The notes: a model not told the origin generated them from the letters alone. A DNA stretch of 64,000 nt from Escherichia coli (GCF_044324875.1 NZ_CP172185.1); one strand, 5' to 3'. Shown: positions 5,585-61,924, counted from the stretch's first letter. Numbers and translations: made by a program.

Positions 5585-5830
5585 TCACGTAACAAGCAGC
5601 TACAGGTAAATTAGCTGAGCATGCATCCATCATTTGTCGCTGCGATGCCAGACTTCCGGATGCTCATATGTTGTTTTACTTTTGTCAGCATAAATGCTGC
5701 GTCGGGACTGGTGAATGGAGATAAGCCATTTTATTATCGACGTCAGAGAACATACTCACAATGTCGGTATGTTTCTGAAATTAAGGGTAAGTTTTGCGCT
5801 GATTACAGTATGCGAAGGAGATCTGGCACA

Positions 5831-11508: not shown

Positions 11509-14354
11509 ATGAAAATCTGTCTTTACCATACCCTGAATCCTGAAACGATCCCGGGCTATAAAAAGTTTGCGCAGGCCATTGAGGCAGATAATTTCGCGCA
11601 GGCGGATGTGCGTAAAATTGATACTAATCTCTACCGGGCACGCCTCAGTATCCGGGATCGGTTGTTGTTTTCACTTTACCGTTACCGTGGTGAGACGGTC
11701 TGCCTGGTACTGGAATATCTGCGTAACCATGCTTACCACACGTCACGTTTTCTGCGCAGGAATGTGGTGATCGACGAGGCGCGGCTGCAGCTGCAACCGG
11801 TGCCGGATCCGGCAGATGCAGACGCCGGTACACTGACGTATCTCAACCCCACTCACGGGCGTTTTCACTACCTGGATAAAATGCTCTCTTTTGATGATGA
11901 CCAGCAGGCGCTGTATGAACATCCGATGCCACTGGTGATTGTCGGCTCCGCCGGCAGCGGAAAGACGGCACTGTTACTGGAGAAAATGAAGCAGGCCGGG
12001 GGCGATATTCTGTATCTCAGCCTTTCGTCATTTCTGGTGGAAAAAGCCCGCACACTCTATCACGCATCTGGTGAAGAACATGACGGGCAGACCATTGATT
12101 TTCTGTCGCTGAGCGAGTTTCTGGAAACCCTGCGCATTCCGGAAGGGCGGGAGGTGACGTTCAGTGCGTTCAGCAACTGGCTGCCCCGCAACCGGACCAC
12201 CGCTGCACTGGGCTCTGGCCATACCCTGTATGAGGAATTTCGTGGTGTCATTGGTGCCGTTGCTTCTGACAACGGACCGCTGTCCCGGGAGGCGTATCTG
12301 TCGCTGGGAGTACGTCAGTCACTTTATGATATGGATGACCGTCCGGCGGTTTACGCCCTGTTTGAGCGTTATGTTGCATGGCTGAAACAGTCGCGTCAGT
12401 ATGACAGTAATCTTCTCAGCCACCAGTACCTGCCACTGGCCGGGCACCGTTATGATGTGGTTTTTGTGGATGAAGTGCAGGATATGACGCCTGTGCAGCT
12501 GCGGCTGGTTCTGAAAACCCTGCGTCATCCCGGTCAGTTTGTACTCTGCGGCGATGCCAATCAGATAGTTCATCCCAGCTTTTTTCCTGGAGTGCCCTCA
12601 AAAGCCTCTTTTTCCGGCAGCAACAGAACGAGGCTGCCGTGAATATTCTGCAGGCGAATTACCGTAACGGGCACCATGTCACCGCACTGGCTAACCGGCT
12701 GCTCAGACTTAAACTGGCCCGGTTCAGTGCCATTGACCGGGAAAGTCACCATTTTGTCAGAAGCTGCGGGCAGACGGAAGGCACCATCAGGCTGCTGGAA
12801 GACCGGGAAGCCACCCGCCATGAGCTGAACAGCAAAACCTCCCGCTCAAACCGTGTGGCGGTGATTGTGATGCAGCCGGAGCAGAAAGCACAGGCCCGGC
12901 GCTGGTTCAGTACACCGCTGGTTTTTTCGGTTCAGGAAGTGAAGGGGCTCGAGTACGAAACGGTGATCCTGTACAACATGGTCAGCAGTACCCGTAAGGC
13001 ATTTGATGATATCTGCGAAGGGATCAATCCGGCAGATCCTGAGGGTGAGGTGCGTTATGCCCACCCCCGGGACCGGCAGGATCGTTCAGCAGAAATCTAC
13101 AGGTTTTTCACCAACGCGCTGTATGTTGCGCTCACCCGTGCCACGCACAACGTGTACCTTGTTGAGCAGGAGGTGGCCCATCCGCTGTGGTCCCTGCTGG
13201 CCCTCACGCATCATGAAACGCAACTGGAGCTGCAGGAAGAGATTTCCAGCCGTGATGAGTGGCAGAAAACCGCTCACCTGCTGGAAAAACAGGGGAAGCA
13301 GGAGCAGGTGGACACCATCCGCAGTATGATCCTGCAGGAGTCAGAAGTACCGTGGCAGATCTTCAGCGCAGAGGATGCGCGGCAGTGGAAACAGCAGATC
13401 CTCAGCGGGACGGCGGACAAAGCCACGAAACTGCAGGCGCTGGAATACAGCCTGATTTATTCCCTGTTTCCGCTGTATAATGCGCTGTACCGGGAAGATT
13501 TTAAGCCCACAAGGCAGCCCCGGACCCGGAGCCAGCAGTTACTGGAGCAGAAGTATTTTCGTCCCTACTCAGTGAATAATCCGGTCGCCGTGCTGAGGGA
13601 TATTGAACGTTATGGTGTTGATCACCGCTCGCCGTTTAATCTTACGCCGCTGATGCTGGCAGCCCGGGCGGGGAACACGGCGCTGGTTCAGTTGCTGCTG
13701 GATCGTGGTGCCGATCCCACGCTGACGGCAAATGACGGGCTGGCGGCGTATCATCATGTTCTGTCAGCGGCGGTCAGCACGCCCCGTTATGCGCAGCAGA
13801 AGGGGGCACAACTCTATGCCTTGCCGGGACCGGAAAGCCTGTCACTGCAGGTGGAAGGGCGGCTTGTCAAACTGGACAACCGGCAGATGGCAATGTTTCT
13901 GGTGATCCTGATGCAGGCATTGTTTTACACGCATCTGGGGAATGCTCTGGTTTTTTCAGAAGCCTTCAGTGCGGCACGACTGGCAGAGTGTGTCGCCCAC
14001 TTTCCTGAAGCCCTGCTGCCGGAACGCCGCAGGCGGAGGAATTATATCAGCAGCCAGCTTTCTCAGCATGAAGTTAACAGCAAGAACCCTTATGGAAAAA
14101 AGCTGTTTCTGCGACTGAGGCATGGTCAGTATATTCTTAATCCGGGGCTGAAAATCAGGCAGAATGACGGGTGGTACCCGGTTTACGACTTGCAGTCACC
14201 GGAAGATCTCGGTCATGATTTACAGACGTATCTGCAGGACATGCCCCCGTACATTCTGGAGATTCTGGGGGGCAGGAAGGATGTTTACGAACAAAGTAAG
14301 GGGTCTGTCGGATACTGGGTGGCGATGATCCGCCGTCACAGTGGTGAGCCGTAA
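11509..14354 (+). pseudogene. UvrD/Rep-like SF1 helicase with C-terminal ankyrin repeats, split by a frameshift in a T6 tract (12580-12585)
   Basis: Walker A GSAGSGKT, motif II VFVDEVQD, motif III CGDANQ in frame 1; downstream NYRNG, ALTRATH motifs and ankyrin repeat (LTPLMLAARAGNTALVQLLLDRGADP) in frame 3; adding one T restores one ORF of about 947 aa. Confidence 0.7.
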
Positions 14355-14422: not shown

Positions 14423-15412
14423 GTGAGCAGCAGGAAAGAGAAAAATACGCCCACGCCGCATGATGCCGCCTTCAGGGCGTTTATGGCCTCAGCAGAGGTG
14501 GCCCGTGATTTTGTTGAACTGCATCTTCCGGCGGAATACCGGCAGTTGTGTGATCTGTCGACGCTGCGGCTGGAGCCCTGTACCTTTGTGGACCAGGATC
14601 TGAAACAGTATGCGTGCGATGCGCTGTTCAGCATGAAGACCGTCAGCGGTGAGGAGGGGTATATTTATTGCCTCGCGGAACACCAGAGTACGGAAAACGC
14701 GTTTATGGCGTTCAGGATGCTCAGATATGCGGTGGCGGCGATGCAGCGTCACTTTGAACAGCACCATGAGCTGCCGCTGGTGATCCCGCTGTTATTCTAC
14801 CACGGTGAGCGGAGCCCGTACCCGTACAGCATGAACTGGCTGGAGTGTTTCAGAAATCCGGAACTTGCTGCTAAAATCTACACCAGACCGTTCCACCTGG
14901 TGGACGTGACGGTACTGGATGACGATGAGATAATGCAACACCGCCGAATGGGGGCACTGACGCTGCTGATGAAACACAGCCGCAGCCGCGACATCATGCT
15001 GCAGATGGACAGGCTGGTTCAGCTGATACAGACTTCACTGAATGAAGAGCTGGCGAAGGCTCTGTTCCACTATCTGCTGAACGGCAGTGAACATGTGACG
15101 GTAAGGTTTTTGCAGACGCTGGCGGAGCGGCTGCCACAGCATGAGGGCAACATAATGACACTGGCTGAACAACTGAAGCAGGAAGGGGAAGTCAAGGGAT
15201 TTGAGCGCGGTATTGCCCAGGGTATGGAGCGCGGTAAGCTAGAAGGCAGAATGGAAGGCAGAATGGAAGGCCGTGCCGAAGGGCGACTCGAAGGACAACT
15301 GGAAGGCAAACTGGAAACGGCGCGTAATATGTTGGCTGAAGGAATGGGGCTTCAGACCATCATGAAAATCACGGGATTGAGTGAAGAACAGCTGAAAAAA
15401 ATCAGCCACTGA
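14423..15412 (+). CDS. Rpn-family recombination-promoting nuclease / putative transposase (YhgA-like, PD-(D/E)xK)
   Basis: 329-aa ORF; N-terminal PHDAAFRAFMASAEVARDF pattern and C-terminal EG(R/K) low-complexity repeats typical of E. coli Rpn proteins. Confidence 0.7.
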   Translation: MSSRKEKNTPTPHDAAFRAFMASAEVARDFVELHLPAEYRQLCDLSTLRLEPCTFVDQDLKQYACDALFSMKTVSGEEGYIYCLAEHQSTENAFMAFRMLRYAVAAMQRHFEQHHELPLVIPLLFYHGERSPYPYSMNWLECFRNPELAAKIYTRPFHLVDVTVLDDDEIMQHRRMGALTLLMKHSRSRDIMLQMDRLVQLIQTSLNEELAKALFHYLLNGSEHVTVRFLQTLAERLPQHEGNIMTLAEQLKQEGEVKGFERGIAQGMERGKLEGRMEGRMEGRAEGRLEGQLEGKLETARNMLAEGMGLQTIMKITGLSEEQLKKISH

Positions 15413-15885: not shown

Positions 15886-16206
15886 TTGCATAAGGCTATC
15901 AGCTATATCCTGAAACGACCTGATGAGCTGTGCCGTTTTCTGGATGATGGCTCTGTGCCACCGGACAACAATATCTGCGAACGAGCCATCCGCCCGGTCA
16001 CGCTGGGGCGAAAGGCATGGTTATTCGCAGGCTCGCTGATGGCCGGCAAACGCGCGGCACAGATAATGAGTCTTCTGGAAACAGCAAAGCGTAATGGTCT
16101 GGAGCCACATGCCTGGCTGACGGACGTACTGACGCGCCTGCCGGAGTGGCCTGAGGACCGACTGGCTGAGCTGCTGCCTCTTGAGGGATTTACCTTCTCC
16201 GGGTGA
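15886..16206 (+). pseudogene. IS66-family transposase TnpC, C-terminal fragment
   Basis: 106 aa with DNNICERAIRPVTLGRKAWLFAGS, parallel to the C-terminus of the intact TnpC at 23005-24543; no N-terminal part or companion orfs. Confidence 0.75.
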
Positions 16207-16554: not shown

Positions 16555-16689
16555 ACCGGAACCGTTTACCCCAAGCAGAGCGGCAATAGATCCGCCTGGT
16601 ACTGTGAAGGATGCATCGCGCAGTGCTTTCTGCCCGTTTCGCCAGGTGACAGTAACGCCATTAACGACAATACCCGCAGATTGCATCAT
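16555..16689 (-). pseudogene. sitB: sitB 5' fragment (ABC transporter ATPase, truncated inside the Walker A motif)
   Basis: first ~45 codons resemble SitB-type ATPase (SFTVPGGSIAALLGVNGSG) then diverge into repeat A; start overlaps sitA stop. Confidence 0.6.
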
Positions 16690-17603
16690 TACTTCTCCCT
16701 TTTCCCGGCTTTAATTCCCTGCACCAGCGTACTGGTAGTAACCTTCAGAAGGTCGATATACGTAGGTACCGGGCCGTTTTCTGTGCTCAGGGAATCGACA
16801 TAGAGCACACCGCCGTAGTGTGCGCCGGTTTCACGCGCAACCTGACGCGCTGGTTTATCGGAAACCGTACTCTCACTAAATACCGCTGGGATATTATTTT
16901 TCTTCACTATATCAACCACTTTACGTACCTGCTGGGGTGTTCCTTGTTGATCGGCATTTATCGGCCACAGATAAAGCTCTTTTAGCCCCAAATCGCGTGC
17001 GAGATAAGAAAAAGCCCCTTCACTGGTGACCATCCATCTTTTATTCTCAGGGAGTTCAGCAATCTGCTTACGCAGGGGGGCAAGGGTTTGGGTAATCTTG
17101 GCTTTATAAGTATCGGCATTACGTTGGTATGTTTTTGCATTTGCCGGATCGTATTTTATCAACGCATCGCGAATATTATCGACGTAAATCAAAGCATTAT
17201 CTGGCGACATCCAGGCATGAGGGTTAGGTTTTCCCTCGTAGGGGCCTTCGGTGATCCCTACTGGCGTCACACCCGAAGAGACAATCACTTCTGGAACACC
17301 ACTGAGATGCTGGTAAAAGCGCTGGAACCACAATTCCAGATTCATACCGTTGGCGAGAATCAGTTGTGCCCCCTGCGCACGTTTAATATCGCCAGGGGTA
17401 GGCTGATACTCATGAATTTCTGCACCGGGCCTGGTTATGGATGAGACTTCTGCAGCATCTCCAGCCACGTTTTTGGCCATATCTGCGATGATGGTAAATG
17501 TTGTAATGACCTTGAATTTTTCAGTTGCACTCGCCTGAAATGCTATCGAGCAGGTGAGGGCGAGGCACCCCAGGAGCATGGTTACTTTTTTTATTGAGTG
17601 CAT
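16689..17603 (-). CDS. sitA: SitA, periplasmic Mn/Fe-binding protein of the SitABCD ABC transporter
   Basis: 304-aa ORF with signal peptide; recognised as the SitA/cluster A-I metal-binding protein family. Confidence 0.8.
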   Translation of the reverse strand: MHSIKKVTMLLGCLALTCSIAFQASATEKFKVITTFTIIADMAKNVAGDAAEVSSITRPGAEIHEYQPTPGDIKRAQGAQLILANGMNLELWFQRFYQHLSGVPEVIVSSGVTPVGITEGPYEGKPNPHAWMSPDNALIYVDNIRDALIKYDPANAKTYQRNADTYKAKITQTLAPLRKQIAELPENKRWMVTSEGAFSYLARDLGLKELYLWPINADQQGTPQQVRKVVDIVKKNNIPAVFSESTVSDKPARQVARETGAHYGGVLYVDSLSTENGPVPTYIDLLKVTTSTLVQGIKAGKREK

Positions 17604-55935: not shown

Positions 55936-56616
55936 ATGACTGATGAGAAAAAGACTGAACCTGGCGTGTTAAAAAGCTCCCTGACAATTAATATTCACAC
56001 TTATTACGCTATTCGGTTGTGGAACGGTCGCAAGCCTGAGACTGGTGCTGATAAGTCGGAACGTCGGCGCAGGATCATTGGCATGCCCGGGGTTATTTCC
56101 CGTGCGGGTATCGCAACAAAAGATTCTGAGAACAATAATCCGTGGGCGGATGAATTTTTGTTCAGCCTTGAGGAAAAGCTGAATCACTCAAAGCAAAAGA
56201 TTAATGACCTGGTTGAGCAGTTAAATGATGTTTTACGGGATGTGCCAGGGGATATTTGTATTTCTGAAATATCATCAACCAGTCCAGTAAATATTGGTGT
56301 GCACAGTCGTTCACCTCTTGGTTACAAATGTGTATGGCTGCTTGTCGGGTACGATGAACTGGTGCTTAAAGCCTTTCAGGCTTTCCACTATGGACTGATT
56401 GCCCGATCACGTCGTGATGAAATACTTAATGCCGGAGGGCATGCTGTACGTCAGATTTGTGCTCTTGCCCAGGGATATAAAACTGTACCTGCAACGAGGG
56501 GTGATATTTCTTCTGGCTCACAAAAAGGAAAAGATGCGATCAGCCGCTATGGCATGCCTGATCCTGACATCCTTACCGGGAAGAAACGGTCCTCCTTTTC
56601 TGCACCGCTGAAATAA
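55936..56616 (+). CDS. conserved ICE protein (PFL_4669-like, putative)
   Basis: ORF immediately upstream of topB as in SPI-7/PFGI-1-type ICEs. Confidence 0.4.
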   Translation: MTDEKKTEPGVLKSSLTINIHTYYAIRLWNGRKPETGADKSERRRRIIGMPGVISRAGIATKDSENNNPWADEFLFSLEEKLNHSKQKINDLVEQLNDVLRDVPGDICISEISSTSPVNIGVHSRSPLGYKCVWLLVGYDELVLKAFQAFHYGLIARSRRDEILNAGGHAVRQICALAQGYKTVPATRGDISSGSQKGKDAISRYGMPDPDILTGKKRSSFSAPLK

Positions 56617-56628
56617 TCTGGTAACTCT

Positions 56629-58647
56629 ATGCGTCTCTATTTATGTGAAAAACCTTCACAGGCCGCTGATATAGCCAGAGTACTTGGGGCTGCCAGACGT
56701 GGTGATGGTGCGATTGAAGGTAAGGACTTTGTTGTGACCTGGGCCTTTGGTCACTTGCTGGAGCAGGCGCCACCGGAGGCGTATGGTGAACAGTTTGGCA
56801 GCCCCTGGAAAATTGACGTTTTGCCGGTCTTTCCTAAACAGTGGAAGATGGTGGTGAAGGATAATGTCGGGAAGCAGTTTAATGTGATCAGCCGCCTTCT
56901 CCGTAAGACTGATGAAGTGGTGATTGCCACTGACGCCGATCGTGAAGGCGAAATTATCGCAAGGGAACTGCTGGATTATTGTGGTTATACCGGCGTTGTG
57001 CGCCGTCTCTGGCTGTCCGCACTGGATGAGAGCAGTATCAGGGAGGCGCTGGACAGAATACTGCCCGGAGAGGAGACCGAGAAGTTATATGAAGCCGGTA
57101 AGGGACGCAGCCGGGCTGACTGGCTGACGGGGATCAACCTGACGCGTCTGTATACCCTGAAAGCCAGGGGGTGTGGTGTGTCCGGCGTCCTCTCTGTTGG
57201 CAGGGTGCAGACGCCCACGCTTGCGATGGTGGTCAGACGGGACGCGGAAATAAAAAATTTTATTCCGGTACCTTACTGGCAACTGTATCTCTGGCTGGAG
57301 AAGGATAATGTGCGTTTTCGTACCACCTGGATTGCGGCAGCGCAGTACTGCGATACTGAAAAACGGTGTGTGAATGTGCAGGCGGCAACAGCCGTCCTGT
57401 CACAGTGTCGTCAGGCAGGTGTTGCTGTTGTCAGGGATGTCAGCAGCAGACGGGAGAAAAAGCAGCCTCCGCTGTGTTTTTCGCTCGGAACGTTGCAGGA
57501 GGTCTGTTCGCGCAAATTTGGCCTCGGAGCGCAGGCTGTTCTTGATATAGCCCAGTCGCTGTACGAAAAGCATAAGGCGACAACATATCCGCGTACAGAT
57601 TGCGGTTATCTGCCGGTATCAATGCACAAAGAAGTGCCTGACGTACTGGCGGCGCTGGAAAAAACCGATCCGGATATTGCCACGGAGCTGGCAAAACTCA
57701 GTCCTGATATTGTGTCGGGGATCTGGAACGACAGGAAGATCACCGCGCATCATGCGATAATCCCCACCCGTCAGCCGTTTAATATTGTGGCGCTGAGTGA
57801 TAATGAGCTTAAGGTGTACCGGTTAATTCGTCAGCATTATCTGGCTCAGTTTTTACCCATGCAGGAGTCGGATGTCACAGAGGCCACATTTCTTGTTGCG
57901 GGGCAGTTGTTCGGAACGCGGGGACGGGTGGAGGTTGTCAGGGGATGGCGTGCGCTTTTTGTGTCAGATTCGGCGGGAGAGGAAGAGGATGTTGCAGACG
58001 ATGAGCAGGCGATGCCCCTTCCCGTACTGGCAAAAGGTGATGAATGTCGTCCTGCTGAAGCTGAACTCAAAGAGATGCAGACCACGCCACCACGTCATTA
58101 TACGGAAGGCACGCTGATTGCGGCGATGAAAAATGCTGCGGGTATGGTGAGTGATCCGGCACTGAAAAAAGTGTTACGCGAAAATGCGGGGCTGGGTACT
58201 GAAGCGACCCGCGCAGAAATACTGGAAACGTTGTTCACCCGCAAATATATCGAGAAGCAGGGTAAGCATATCCGTGCCACGCAACTGGGGGCGGAGCTGA
58301 TAGCGGGATTGCCGGAGGCGCTGACCAGTCCGGGAACAACGGCGCTGTGGGAACAGGCTCTGGATGATATTGCACAGGGTAAACTGTCACTGTCGTCATT
58401 TATGGAGAAGCAGAAACAGTGGCTTAACCACCTGGTGGCCGGTGCAAGGCAGCAGCCACTGCAGATCACGGCACCGGTTACGCCTGCATGCCCTCTTTGC
58501 AGGGGAAGAATGCGGAAGGTGAAGATGAAAAGCGGGAAAGGGGAATTCTGGAGTTGTCAGCGTTATCCGGAGTGTAAGGGAGTGATTTCAGAGCAGAAAC
58601 CGACATCCGGGAAACGGGGCGGCAGAAAAATTAAAAAGCGTGGATGA
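56629..58647 (+). CDS. topB: DNA topoisomerase III
   Basis: Toprim N-terminus (LYLCEKPSQA), catalytic Tyr region, C-terminal zinc ribbon CPLCRG...CQRYPEC. Confidence 0.85.
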   Translation: MRLYLCEKPSQAADIARVLGAARRGDGAIEGKDFVVTWAFGHLLEQAPPEAYGEQFGSPWKIDVLPVFPKQWKMVVKDNVGKQFNVISRLLRKTDEVVIATDADREGEIIARELLDYCGYTGVVRRLWLSALDESSIREALDRILPGEETEKLYEAGKGRSRADWLTGINLTRLYTLKARGCGVSGVLSVGRVQTPTLAMVVRRDAEIKNFIPVPYWQLYLWLEKDNVRFRTTWIAAAQYCDTEKRCVNVQAATAVLSQCRQAGVAVVRDVSSRREKKQPPLCFSLGTLQEVCSRKFGLGAQAVLDIAQSLYEKHKATTYPRTDCGYLPVSMHKEVPDVLAALEKTDPDIATELAKLSPDIVSGIWNDRKITAHHAIIPTRQPFNIVALSDNELKVYRLIRQHYLAQFLPMQESDVTEATFLVAGQLFGTRGRVEVVRGWRALFVSDSAGEEEDVADDEQAMPLPVLAKGDECRPAEAELKEMQTTPPRHYTEGTLIAAMKNAAGMVSDPALKKVLRENAGLGTEATRAEILETLFTRKYIEKQGKHIRATQLGAELIAGLPEALTSPGTTALWEQALDDIAQGKLSLSSFMEKQKQWLNHLVAGARQQPLQITAPVTPACPLCRGRMRKVKMKSGKGEFWSCQRYPECKGVISEQKPTSGKRGGRKIKKRG

Positions 58648-58847
58648 TGATTACATGCTTTTTTTTATTTGTTAAAGTGCATACGCTTTGATGCGTACCC
58701 TGCTGACCACAGTAAAGAGCGGGCAGCTCTTCGGTCCGGTGATCGGCTCTACACACCAGCTGGATCACAAGGCGCATAAACTCCGTGAAAACCGCGCCGG
58801 GAGAAATCCCCGGAGACTGATGAGATAAACTACAGGGCTGGTAACCC

Positions 58848-58880
58848 CGGGCACCGTTTTTACGGTGCCCTTTTTATTTT
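58848..58880 (+). terminator. Rho-independent terminator
   Basis: CGGGCACCG-TTTTTA-CGGTGCCC followed by TTTTTATTTT. Confidence 0.7.
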
Positions 58881-58927
58881 GGTATTGACTTTCTTTGTGT
58901 GAGCTTTAAATATGGCAGGGCTAACTT

Positions 58928-59110
58928 GTCGCTCCGGCGACCACCAATGTTCCATAGTGGCCTGTGAGGAACGCCTTCGGGTGGCCCATGTCGCTTCAGC
59001 GACCACCAATGTTCCATGTGGCCTGTGAGGAACGCCTTCGGGTGGCCCACGTCGCTCCGGCGACCACCAATGCTTCATCTGACCTGTGAGGAGCGCCTTC
59101 GGGTGGTCAG
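58928..59110. repeat. three tandem ~61-bp repeats
   Basis: GTCGCTCCGGCGACCACCAATGTTCCAT-GTGGCCTGTGAGGAACGCCTTCGGGTGGCCCA x3 with a few substitutions. Confidence 0.8.
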
Positions 59111-59357
59111 TTTTACACCTCCTGAGCCTGAAAGGAGCTGTGCGTACTGAAGGGATATATTCCCGGAAGTACGGGCAAATCTGCACACCTTTGAGAGCAG
59201 ATGTCACTGCGGTTTTCCGTGATGATGAAGGCTTTTTTTACTGCACAGACAGCCGGAAATTCAGCTGATTCCGGCATCCCCGACGGGAACTATCACTCCC
59301 GTCAGGGCTGGTGATGTTCTCCGTCATATCTTTTTTTCACTCCATGGAGAAATCATC

Positions 59358-59822
59358 ATGTCTGCAACTAACTCTACTTCTGCAAAAACTGAATACTTCA
59401 ACCTGACCATGAAAGGTCTTGGGTATCTCAGCAATGTACGTCAGGTTAACCATCAGAACGGTTCGTTCCTCAGCTGTGTGATTAACGCACTGAGTGGACC
59501 AACGGACAATCCGTCCTATACGCGTTTTGATGTTACGGTTGCCGGTAAAGAGGCGACCACCCTGATCTCCCGCTGCCAGAAAGCAGTGGATGAGGACCGC
59601 AAGGTACTGCTTGGTTTTACGTTAAGCAACCTTGCCACCGACATTTTCACCCTGAACAAGGGGGAGCATGCCGGTGAGCAACGCGTCAGCCTGAAAGCCC
59701 GCCTGATCAAGGTGGACTGGATAAAAATAGGCCAGGAGCAGGTCTATAAGGCTGAAAAAGCGGAGTCCCAGCCACCGAGCCATGGCACCACAAAACGTGA
59801 ATACGCAGAAGACTCCTTCTGA
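59358..59822 (+). CDS. conserved ICE protein (STY4534-like, putative)
   Basis: 154-aa ORF downstream of the 61-bp repeats. Confidence 0.4.
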   Translation: MSATNSTSAKTEYFNLTMKGLGYLSNVRQVNHQNGSFLSCVINALSGPTDNPSYTRFDVTVAGKEATTLISRCQKAVDEDRKVLLGFTLSNLATDIFTLNKGEHAGEQRVSLKARLIKVDWIKIGQEQVYKAEKAESQPPSHGTTKREYAEDSF

Positions 59823-59921
59823 TCGCGTATTTTTCTCACTGCCTCCCTGATAAAGAAAACAGACCACCATCAGGGAGGTCTGTTTTCTTATTGTGTTTAC
59901 TGAACTTTAAGGAAACAAATT

Positions 59922-60125
59922 ATGACTTCTACAAACGGTATTCTCGCAGCTGCGGCAGGTTATACATTACCTCTGGAAATACTCAAAAGTGGGCGCGGAT
60001 ATTATATTGGCACTCAGTGTTGTGAGGGGCCGGTATCCCGTGAATCAGAAGAGTATTTCAAAAAATATGAGCAGGCTGAGCGGGCGCTGAAAAATGGCAC
60101 CTGGACACAACGTCATGCCTGGTAA
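59922..60125 (+). CDS. small hypothetical protein
   Basis: 67-aa ORF with good spacing to ssb. Confidence 0.35.
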   Translation: MTSTNGILAAAAGYTLPLEILKSGRGYYIGTQCCEGPVSRESEEYFKKYEQAERALKNGTWTQRHAW

Positions 60126-60137
60126 TGAGGAGGTGCT

Positions 60138-60695
60138 ATGGCTTCACGTGGCGTAAACAAAGTTATCCTGATAGGACATCTGGGGCAGGATCCGGATATC
60201 CGGTATTTCCCCAATGGCGGTGGCGTTGTGGCGAATCTGTCACTGGCGACCAGCGACACCTGGCGGGATAAACAGAGCGGTGAAATGAAGGAAGTCACTG
60301 AATGGCACCGCGTTGTTCTCTATGGAAAACTGGCTGAAGTTGCCTGCGAGTACCTGCATAAGGGGTCGCAGGTGTATATAGAAGGCCAGCTTAAAACCCG
60401 TAAATGGTTTGACCAGCAGAATGGTGTGGACCGTTATTCAACTGAGGTTGTTGTGGGCGTGAATGGTGTCATGCAGATGCTGGGTTCATCGCGTCAGCAG
60501 GGCGCTTCCGGTAATGGTGCTTCAGCACCGGCACAAGGGGGCCAGGGACAGCCGCCGAAGACGACCGGACAGACTGGTCGTGCTACCCGGACAACTTCAA
60601 CAGGTAATGGTGCTCCACCTGTGGACTTTGACGATGATATCCCCTTTATGGGGATCGGGTATGGCATGGAACGGCGAATTATTCATGCCATGTAA
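60138..60695 (+). CDS. ssb: single-stranded DNA-binding protein with 15-aa extension past the canonical DDDIPF tail
   Basis: OB-fold N-terminus, Gly/Gln-rich linker, DFDDDIPF followed by [15 protein letters not shown]. Confidence 0.8.
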
Positions 60696-60741
60696 TATTA
60701 ACCATGGGGCGATACGCCCCACTTTTTTATCCGGAGGTTAC

Positions 60742-61734
60742 GTGAGTGAAAAAGTTAACAAAATCACTATGATTCATGACGGGGCGTTAAAGAAGACGCT
60801 TGAAGATCCCGCAGCAGTAAGGGACTTTCTTGAACAGGTCTTGACACACGATCAGATATCCCGCTGTAATCTTGATACAATAGAAGTTGAAAAGAATTCG
60901 TTCGTGACGGAAAGTTTGCGTCAGCATGCCTGTGATGTTTTGATCAGCATGAAGACAAACGACGGCAGGGACGGATACATTTATACCTTAATCGAGCACC
61001 AGAGTTCGCCGGATAAATTCATCCCGCTGCGTATGATGCGATATATCCTGGCTGTAATGGAGCAACATGTTGAAAAGCATAAGTGTGCACCTGTGGTGAT
61101 CCCCGTGCTGTTTTATCATGGTGCAGTGCGGCCATATCCGTATCCGCTGAACTGGGTGGATTGTCTGGATGACCCGGAGTACGGACGTGAGATTTATGGC
61201 GAGTCAAAGCCATTCAGTCTGGTGGATGTCAGTACGCTTGATGATGATGAAATTGAGCAGTATCGCCGGATGGCGGCGCTGATGTACACCATGAAGTCCG
61301 GAACTCAGGGTGATTTGATTGAGCTGATTGGTAAATCGATCACACTGACGGATAAGTATGGCAGCAGCGTTCACCTGAATACGGTGCTTACTTATCTGAT
61401 GGAACTTTACCAGATGGATGTTGCTGAACTTTTTGAAGCAATATCCACACACTATCCCAGCCACAAGGGGGTGATTATGACGATAGCGGAACAACTGGAA
61501 GAGAAAGGCCTTGAGAAAGGCCGTGCTGAAGGTCTTGCTGAAGGCCGTGCTGAAGGCCGTGCTGAAGGTCTTGCTGAAGGTCTTGCTGAAGGCCGTGCTG
61601 AAGAGCGTCAAAAAGCGCTTGCAGAAACCTATGCATCTGTCCGTCGCATGAGTGATATGGGGATGTCAACAGAAGTTATTAAGCAAGCTCTTCAGCTTTC
61701 TGATGAACAGATTCAGGAAGCGCTTAATAATTAA
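60742..61734 (+). CDS. Rpn-family recombination-promoting nuclease / putative transposase (second paralog)
   Basis: GTG start after GGAGG; parallel to 14423-15412 incl. C-terminal (AEG[RL])n repeats. Confidence 0.7.
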   Translation: MSEKVNKITMIHDGALKKTLEDPAAVRDFLEQVLTHDQISRCNLDTIEVEKNSFVTESLRQHACDVLISMKTNDGRDGYIYTLIEHQSSPDKFIPLRMMRYILAVMEQHVEKHKCAPVVIPVLFYHGAVRPYPYPLNWVDCLDDPEYGREIYGESKPFSLVDVSTLDDDEIEQYRRMAALMYTMKSGTQGDLIELIGKSITLTDKYGSSVHLNTVLTYLMELYQMDVAELFEAISTHYPSHKGVIMTIAEQLEEKGLEKGRAEGLAEGRAEGRAEGLAEGLAEGRAEERQKALAETYASVRRMSDMGMSTEVIKQALQLSDEQIQEALNN

Positions 61735-61924
61735 CCTCACATCGTAATGATGTGGCAGAGCGCGACTGATGCGTCAGAATGCGTGATGCCCTGTGAACAC
61801 AGCGCCTGCCATTGTGCAGGCGTTTTTTTTGTCAACCGGAAATCAGTTGTTCATTGAGCCTCCCCTCACTTCTTCTGCAAATTGACCTCTGACTTTATCA
61901 CTTCACTGCAGAGGTAATTCCCTG

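Follow-up and report, generated by a model that had tools for sequence, protein, structure and literature searches.

We analyzed two Rpn family nuclease genes in a 64,000-nucleotide stretch of an Escherichia coli genome (GCF_044324875.1, NZ_CP172185.1; hereafter, the window), one located between the ssb and pilL genes of an integrative conjugative element (ICE) and the other, denoted rpn1, outside the ICE backbone. Both are probably toxin-antitoxin (TA) modules of the gene-within-a-gene type, in which a full-length nuclease, RpnL, and a small protein, RpnS, are encoded by the same open reading frame (ORF), and the ICE-borne copy would be defense or stabilization cargo that occupies the ssb-pilL slot of the element. 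We infer the toxicity, the antitoxin action, the specificity conferred by the repeat number, and the function in phage defense or addiction from the published Rpn family. The two genes and their parts are as follows:

60742-61734, + strand: ICE-borne rpn, encoding RpnL (330 aa) from a GTG start; the identical coding sequence in RefSeq, WP_073267992.1, is annotated as Rpn family
60775-61353, + strand: PD-(D/E)XK / Transposase_31 nuclease domain of ICE rpn, residues 12-204 (Pfam envelope)
61477-61734, + strand: candidate intragenic antitoxin ORF, RpnS, of ICE rpn (85 aa, in frame, M246; from sequence)
61505-61603, + strand: 12-bp tandem repeat array encoding four-residue repeats (Tandem Repeats Finder and repeat search)
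14423-15412, + strand: second Rpn paralog, rpn1 (329 aa; PF04754), outside the ICE backbone
15155-15412, + strand: candidate RpnS ORF of rpn1 (85 aa, about ten xxxG repeats; from sequence)

RpnA is an Mg-dependent, Ca-stimulated, non-specific endonuclease; the substitutions D11A, D63A, E82A, and Q84K abolish its phenotypes, Q84A and R94A alter them, and overexpression of Rpn proteins raises RecA-independent recombination after conjugation (Kingston et al. 2017, PMC5350276). More recently, rpn genes were described as gene-within-a-gene TA systems that encode the toxic full-length RpnL and a small RpnS that blocks the cognate RpnL (Zhong et al. 2023, PMC10400941). Translation of RpnS begins at an internal codon, M244 in RpnA, and mutating M244 along with its ribosome-binding site abolishes RpnA-S (PMC10400941). 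The C-terminal helix common to RpnL and RpnS contains four-residue repeats, each made up of one hydrophobic residue together with charged residues or Gly, that begin 8-20 residues after the RpnS Met, and the number of these repeats differs among strains and determines RpnL-RpnS specificity (PMC10400941). Some loci, such as rpnC and rpnE, include an extra stand-alone rpnS gene, and fusion and deletion events have been described; protection against T-even phages was reported for a plasmid Rpn (RpnP2), the only one for which it was shown (PMC10400941).

Nuclease domains, internal starts, and repeat tracts

Judging by profile matches and alignments that are much stronger than chance would give, both ORFs are ordinary members of the known Rpn (YhgA-like; COG5464) nuclease family. 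The GTG start of ICE rpn at 60742 is located 5 nt downstream of GGAGG (60733-60737), and the RefSeq product of identical sequence and the same GTG start is named [quoted passage not shown]; a longer ORF, 60463-61734, is a mere upstream extension of the rpn frame that overlaps ssb. The PF04754 profile (Transposase_31, YhgA-like; cut-off 21 bits) matched residues 12-204 of ICE Rpn (E = 5.5e-60, 202.9 bits) and residues 11-207 of Rpn1 (E = 6.5e-74, 248.3 bits), and both proteins scored above the cut-off of 52.1 bits with NCBIfam TIGR01784 (121.3 and 175.7 bits, respectively). The two proteins align over their full length with 40% identity (329 residues, E = 2e-85). These matches bear out a preliminary description of this DNA that had pointed to two Rpn paralogs with a common N-terminal nuclease region at these positions. 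The scores with the equivalog models for K-12 RpnA (NF007361) and PRK09956 “ISNCY family transposase” (NF007418) were 191-304 bits (191 and 303 bits with the RpnA model alone). Because these scores are below the equivalog cut-off of 583 bits, the window proteins, which are 37% and 51% identical to K-12 RpnA, are classified as family members rather than as orthologs of K-12 proteins.

In an alignment of K-12 RpnA, both window paralogs, and two divergent ICE alleles, RpnA residues D11, D63, E82, Q84, and R94 are invariant, and so is the M244 column. The window proteins have in common with RpnA (Kingston et al. 2017, PMC5350276) the domain itself, the D/E/Q/R core, and a downstream acidic motif (LDDDE in the window, PDDE in RpnA), but differ from the K-12 protein in the C-terminal helix, which contains zero repeat units in RpnA versus 8 and about 10 in the window alleles. 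The “recombination-promoting” phenotype of RpnA came from overexpression (PMC5350276).

Each gene contains an in-frame internal ATG that could serve as the RpnS start. The ATG of ICE rpn (61477) is located 5 nt after a Shine-Dalgarno-like AAGGGGG (61465-61471), and that of rpn1 (15155) is located 7 nt after GAGGG (15143-15147); both encoded Met residues (M246 in the ICE protein) align with RpnA M244. The N-terminal motif of RpnS, MTIAExL, is kept in 12 RpnS sequences, including those of alleles with nuclease domains that are only 44-49% identical, and the DNA encoding it forms an island of identity within the otherwise diverged allele of strain Br_112 (see below). The putative ICE RpnS begins with MTIAEQLEEKG, followed by LEKG, RAEG, LAEG, and more repeats of this kind; residue 12 opens the first of them, about 11 residues past the Met and within the family range of 8-20 residues (PMC10400941). 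The array in ICE rpn (61505/61517-61603; 7.2 copies, 89% match, Tandem Repeats Finder score 132-160) encodes LEKG-RAEG-LAEG-RAEG-RAEG-LAEG-LAEG-RAEE, and that of rpn1 (approximately 15195-15316) is more degenerate, with about ten xxxG units. The C-terminal tract of “E-G-R/L” repeats that the preliminary description had noticed is therefore present in both ORFs as a tandem array, and the TA reading would explain this tract, which had been left unexplained.

Like the published RpnL/RpnS systems (RpnA-E and RpnP2), the genes analyzed here combine a nuclease domain containing all the tested catalytic residues with an internal Met at the RpnA M244 position, a Shine-Dalgarno-like site, repeats about 11 residues past the Met, a repeat number that varies among strains, an optional downstream stand-alone rpnS, and missing transposon ends. 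The differences are that the ICE copy occupies a fixed slot of a conjugative element and that the evidence for the window alleles consists of their sequences. By analogy with this family, RpnL would be a PD-(D/E)XK DNA endonuclease that is toxic when unopposed, and the 85-residue RpnS, translated from the internal ATG (61477 in the ICE gene, 15155 in rpn1), would pair with the identical C-terminal helix of RpnL and block the nuclease. The four-residue repeats would extend this helix such that their number decides which RpnS neutralizes which RpnL, and slippage or recombination within the 12-bp array could quickly yield new specificities. The ICE copy would then be accessory cargo that an ICEEc2-like element (PFGI-1/pKLC102/SPI-7 class) carries in its ssb-pilL interval, with the likely benefit of phage protection for the host, stabilization of the ICE by addiction, or both.

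Variation among ICE-borne alleles

The ICE-borne rpn genes vary in length both among E. coli ICEs (993, 969, 957, 945, and 933 bp) and in related alleles (960, 942, 936, 924, 921, and 909 bp). Alleles with identical nuclease domains differ in the number of repeat units: there are 8 in E. coli TUM1886, whose allele is that of the window, 4 in each of the strains E19035 (locus L056) and GF43 (L059), and 3 in VTB97420v (L058); the alleles of loci L062 and L063 are one LEKG unit apart. The RpnS region was matched over its full length in 34 complete E. coli genomes, where it falls into five length classes, with every difference being a multiple of 12 bp. The lengths relative to the window are:

0 bp: 1 genome
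-24 bp: 21 genomes
-36 bp: 7 genomes
-48 bp: 3 genomes
-60 bp: 2 genomes

The 8-unit allele of the window is thus the longest and the rarest among these genomes. All 12 of the 12 ICE alleles are intact ORFs, and the frame is kept by every length change.

A stand-alone RpnS-like gene encoding 82-122 aa is present between rpn and pilL in six of the E. coli ICE loci:

L057, 5674-6027
L058, 9809-10069
L060, 5122-5490
L061, 9734-10087
L062, 4108-4356
L063, 9184-9432

These genes are annotated as hypothetical protein, “transposase,” or, in one case, “RpnC/YadD family protein.” The stand-alone copy in L062 contains 2 repeat units versus 6 in the upstream rpn. In L057 and L061, the C-terminus of the window type is found on the stand-alone gene and the upstream gene has a different tail, a pattern in keeping with the gene fusions and deletions that Zhong et al. 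described (PMC10400941).

The ICE of E. coli Br_112_kylling encodes an Rpn (L002, 10743-11702) that is only 44% identical to that of the window, although the elements have 98-100% identity in the flanks. The two sequences part 3 bp upstream of the start codon and come together again about a dozen bases past the stop. Both elements have in common the hairpin that follows ssb, the ribosome-binding site, and the terminator downstream. Because the Br_112 allele is closer (64-66% identity) to alleles of the distant ICE lineages, it looks like the product of a cassette-like allele swap at the ORF borders, by recombination between ICEs.

The ssb-pilL slot and its occupants

The slot that contains ICE rpn in the window is delimited by the following features:

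60138-60695, + strand: ICE ssb, left border of the slot (ORF and annotation)
60705-60721, + strand: terminator-like hairpin and T-run between the ssb stop codon and the rpn ribosome-binding site
61801-61830, + strand: intrinsic-terminator-like hairpin and T8 after rpn, in the conserved downstream flank
61925-62503, + strand: pilL2 (PFGI-1 class ICE PilL), right border of the slot (ORF and annotation)

The placement of this rpn between ssb and pilL, already given in the preliminary description, was thus confirmed. Several blocks of homology between ICEs stop at the terminator after rpn (query position 5830). No promoter-like site was found in the 46-bp gap after ssb. The terminator-like hairpins on both sides (60705-60721 and 61801-61824) together with the promoterless gap suggest that RpnL may be expressed at a low level by read-through, which would fit the low RpnL expression reported for the family (PMC10400941).

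Positions 56000-64000 of the window are 100% identical to E. coli TUM1886 (NZ_CP128970.1). The Prokaryotic Genome Annotation Pipeline annotation of the record identical over this range includes the class markers PFL_4669, topB, STY4534, ssb, PilL2, and TIGR03759 in the conserved order. The element resembles ICEEc2 and the PFGI-1/pKLC102/PAGI-2/SPI-7 class in the order parA, dnaB-PI, parB ... STY4528, PFL_4669, topB, STY4534, ssb, (slot), pilL2, TIGR03759, and differs from the PFGI-1/SPI-7 class ICEs of other genera, which carry other genes in the ssb-pilL slot. In TUM1886, the ICE adjoins the kps capsule and gsp clusters, and the upstream 50 kb (glc/gsp/kps) are unrelated to those in the window; one and the same ICE module is therefore found in more than one genomic context. 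Within the module, the 710-bp gap between topB and the STY4534-family gene contains three tandem 61-nt units that yielded two matches to the STAXI RNA motif (Rfam RF01728; window positions 58927-59233, + strand; 61.6 and 66.3 bits with a gathering score of 40.5). Among E. coli ICEs, this gap varies far more than the genes on either side of it, with 69% identity in L062 and L063.

To compare slot contents, we used 52 related ICE loci, each with up to 10 kb of flank, that were collected from one-genome-per-species assemblies with PilL2 as the anchor and came from genera including Mixta, Serratia, Brenneria, Edwardsiella, Pantoea, Erwinia, Cedecea, Klebsiella, Citrobacter, Salmonella, Xenorhabdus, Proteus, Pectobacterium, Yersinia, and two Pasteurellaceae. 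The order topB, STY4534, (hyp67), ssb, pilL is widely conserved, and the class order is found in at least 40 loci of other Enterobacterales. None of the 52 non-Escherichia loci encodes an Rpn homolog (tblastn with both Rpn proteins). The slot could be read from an upstream anchor in 44 of the 52 loci, in which 28 bp to several kb precede pilL. The contents are:

DUF29 protein: 17 loci
DUF4160 and DUF2442 pair: 12-14 loci
Phd/YefM-like and PIN pair: 2 loci (L036, L038)
TacA and GNAT pair: 1 locus (L040)
DndB-like gene with others: 1 locus (L031)
IS4 transposase: 1 locus (L016)
Nothing: several loci

Given these mixed occupants, several of which are TA-like, the ssb-pilL interval is a variable cargo slot, and it appears to hold mostly small TA-like or defense-type modules. 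The type II TA cargo that ICEs of Erwinia psidii and Yersinia similis (PIN/Phd) and of Trabulsiella (TacA/GNAT) carry in the same slot likewise consists of small, self-contained modules but differs from Rpn in comprising two separate genes with toxins (PIN, TacT-like) that are not DNA endonucleases and in the lack of repeat-encoded specificity. The positions of DUF29 and DUF4160/DUF2442 match those of proven TA modules in sister ICEs, which hints at the function of both uncharacterized families.

An Rpn gene follows ssb directly in every Escherichia ICE examined, that is, in 14 E. coli loci and in contig L069. Contigs with a protein named by NCBI as E. albertii carry Rpn in the ssb-pilL slot as well, and in both E. 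coli BLAST tables, Rpn is named in every slot-covering row among the matches listed. The closest relatives of ICE Rpn among the matches listed, at 74% and 46% identity, are both located in the same slot; the homolog search covered at most 8000 word-sharing candidates and thus gives a sample of the species in which the ICE-type Rpn is found. A BLAST search with the region from ssb through pilL was dominated by chromosomal and plasmid ssb genes.

The Rpn-carrying Escherichia ICEs represent at least four backbone lineages, with backbone identity from 100% to about 80% and TopB identity down to 66-67%. At 89% identity between backbone proteins, the nuclease domains of Rpn show 85% identity, which suggests co-divergence of Rpn with the ICE backbone; at 80% backbone identity, the nuclease domains are only 47-49% identical. 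In the most distant Escherichia lineages, TopB is 66-67% identical to that of the window, a level equal to that of the Mixta, Edwardsiella, and Cedecea ICEs without Rpn, and ssb and hyp67 are closer to the window (72-79%) than those of the latter ICEs (56-64%). Judged by this distribution, ICE rpn is long-resident cargo of Escherichia ICEs; it is not part of the backbone of the wider family, nor is it a recent insertion, because Rpn is present in the slot of every Escherichia ICE examined. The preliminary description had taken rpn for an insertion that interrupts an otherwise syntenic ICE backbone and had called for a comparison with ICEs lacking the gene. Its accessory status holds with respect to other genera, in which all 52 loci lack rpn, but the notion of a recent interruption does not, the gene being present in all 14 E. 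coli loci.

Alternative explanations, implications, and the surroundings of rpn1

Several observations weigh against the reading of these genes as RpnL/RpnS modules and of the slot as a site of defense cargo. No internal promoter stands out in ICE rpn: 2 sigma-70-like sites were found versus 2.9 expected in shuffled sequences, that is, the background level. No significant match to a defense family was detected for either Rpn protein with PADLOC 2.0. The AlphaFold2 model of RpnS comprises helices 3-21, 29-60, 65-72, and 76-84 and gives a long first helix with two short ones after it, and its confidence is moderate (mean predicted local distance difference test score 69, about 50 in the repeat helix). 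The reference fold of RpnS, the RpnA-S crystal structure (PDB 7th0), is a three-helix bundle with a long first helix. A Foldseek search with the RpnS model gave no significant match; 7th0 ranked only 29th with a non-significant E-value of 4.9 (template modeling score 0.62 normalized to the target, root mean square deviation 2.0 over 37 columns). A PDB sequence search gave no hit, and a Pfam search with the isolated RpnS regions gave nothing meaningful. The label of a TA/defense slot is itself partly conjectural because DUF29 and DUF4160/DUF2442 are not proven TA or defense genes. Finally, the universal presence of Rpn in Escherichia ICEs could instead mean an ICE-specific function. The main competing explanation builds on this last point: ICE Rpn would be a working part of the element, a recombination-promoting nuclease that acts with SSB and topoisomerase III in transfer or establishment, for example, in the RecA-independent incorporation of transferred DNA or in an attack on the resident DNA of the recipient. 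In this case, one would note the location of rpn directly after ssb in the topB/STY4534/ssb module, with no promoter-like site of its own in the gap, and its presence in Escherichia lineages as divergent (TopB about 66%) as the ICEs of other genera; overexpressed Rpn raises RecA-independent recombination after conjugation (PMC5350276), and ICEs of a similar type drive Hfr-like chromosomal transfer in E. coli (PMC13127887). However, the 52 loci of other genera without Rpn indicate that it is dispensable for the ICE life cycle, rpn evolves far faster than the backbone (48% versus 80% protein identity), and both the cassette swap in one ICE and the hypervariability of antitoxin-type repeats are traits of defense or TA cargo rather than of core machinery; furthermore, Rpn is unmentioned in the searched literature on E. 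coli ICEs. Universality in Escherichia sustains a role in the ICE machinery, and the absence from other genera along with the defense-like evolution weaken it, so that we consider such a role improbable.

Two further explanations have still less in their favor. The database names “Transposase_31 / ISNCY family transposase,” the lack of the gene in the same slot in other genera, and the occurrence of two copies within a single 64-kb window could suggest that rpn is a self-mobile, insertion sequence (IS)-like unit (“putative transposase”) that inserted between ssb and pilL, with rpn1 as a second copy. This is extremely improbable: there are no inverted repeats in 60300-62100 and none flanking either gene, no direct repeats resembling a target-site duplication were found, the flanks of the paralogs are unrelated, and the copies are only 40% identical. 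The Br_112 swap, too, is bounded by the ORF, with the ribosome-binding site and both terminators shared, unlike a transposon insertion. The “Rpn mobility or recombination promotion” invoked in the preliminary description therefore finds no support in inverted repeats, target-site duplications, or shared flanks, and the shared ends that it had proposed to look for did not materialize: alignment of the two loci with their flanks and a repeat search around both revealed no common ends. Zhong et al. came to the same conclusion for the family as a whole, namely that Rpns, being without inverted repeats or target duplications, are not transposases, and read them as a TA/antiphage system hitch-hiking on mobile elements (PMC10400941). 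Alternatively, the repeat tract and the allele differences could reflect neutral slippage in a decaying or functionless gene, with the slot being no more than a tolerant stretch between genes. Slippage is inherently likely in a 12-bp tandem array, but this explanation, too, is very unlikely considering that 12 of the 12 ICE alleles are intact with frame-preserving length changes, that the divergent alleles in the alignments show no change in the catalytic residues or the motif at the internal start, and that rpn is retained in all Escherichia ICE lineages examined.

With the RpnL/RpnS reading preferred, much of the above is already known: the Rpn name is in RefSeq, and the gene behaves as described in the 2023 paper (PMC10400941). 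As it stands, the finding adds little to biology. The placement of rpn in a fixed ICE slot was not found in Zhong et al. 2023 (PMC10400941), where “conjugative” has 0 occurrences, or in a full-text search; a full-text literature search found no link of YhgA-like genes with ICEs, and there was no mention of Rpn in the searched E. coli ICE/pheV literature, including PMC13127887. The fixed ICE slot and its genus-specific occupancy, not encountered in the literature searched, are a modest addition. This gives an Rpn system a fixed slot within an E. coli ICE family of clinical relevance (avian and extra-intestinal pathogenic strains) and offers a clear series of natural alleles for the RpnL/RpnS model: identical nuclease domains combined with 3, 4, or 8 units, an ORF-bounded swap, and the gain or loss of a stand-alone rpnS.

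A broader proposal, which we regard as possible but doubtful, is that the ssb-pilL interval of PFGI-1/SPI-7-class ICEs is a dedicated exchange slot for small TA or defense modules, in which the host genus, and not the ancestry of the ICE, determines the occupant. It is compatible with the observation that the Escherichia lineages at about 66% TopB identity all carry Rpn and the slot of the equally divergent ICEs from Mixta, Edwardsiella, and Cedecea holds DUF29 or DUF4160/DUF2442 or is empty, and also with the greater similarity of the slot neighbors ssb and hyp67 among Escherichia ICEs compared with the remaining backbone. If this is the case, an ssb-rpn module would spread among co-resident ICEs, Rpn would have an ICE-linked role in Escherichia, such as addiction or inter-element competition, and it might be activated during transfer, when transcription reads through from the ssb operon. 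A genus-specific TA/defense site would also be a convenient marker and a test bed for the acquisition and exchange of stabilization or immunity genes by ICEs.

Of 5426 E. coli genomes, 1199 contain relatives of the nuclease part of rpn1, most of them plasmid-borne and about 75% identical, and the homology stops at approximately 590-836 of 990 among the matches listed, before or within the C-terminal region. The gene adjoins a UvrD-like helicase/ankyrin gene and an IS66 remnant. The UvrD-like helicase/ankyrin-repeat gene (11509-14354, + strand), directly upstream, is split into two ORFs, 11509-12642 and 12639-14354, with a 4-nt overlap; its counterpart on plasmids that are about 83% identical carries one gene name, and PADLOC gave weak matches to helicases of the GajB/Nhi type. 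This may be a defense-type gene that is either frameshifted or made up of two parts. Downstream of rpn1 are a remnant of an IS66-family transposase (15886-16206) and sitA of the sitABCD iron/manganese transporter (16689-17603, minus strand). The left 44 kb of the window form a mosaic of fragments from islands, to which no complete E. coli genome provides a single close match.

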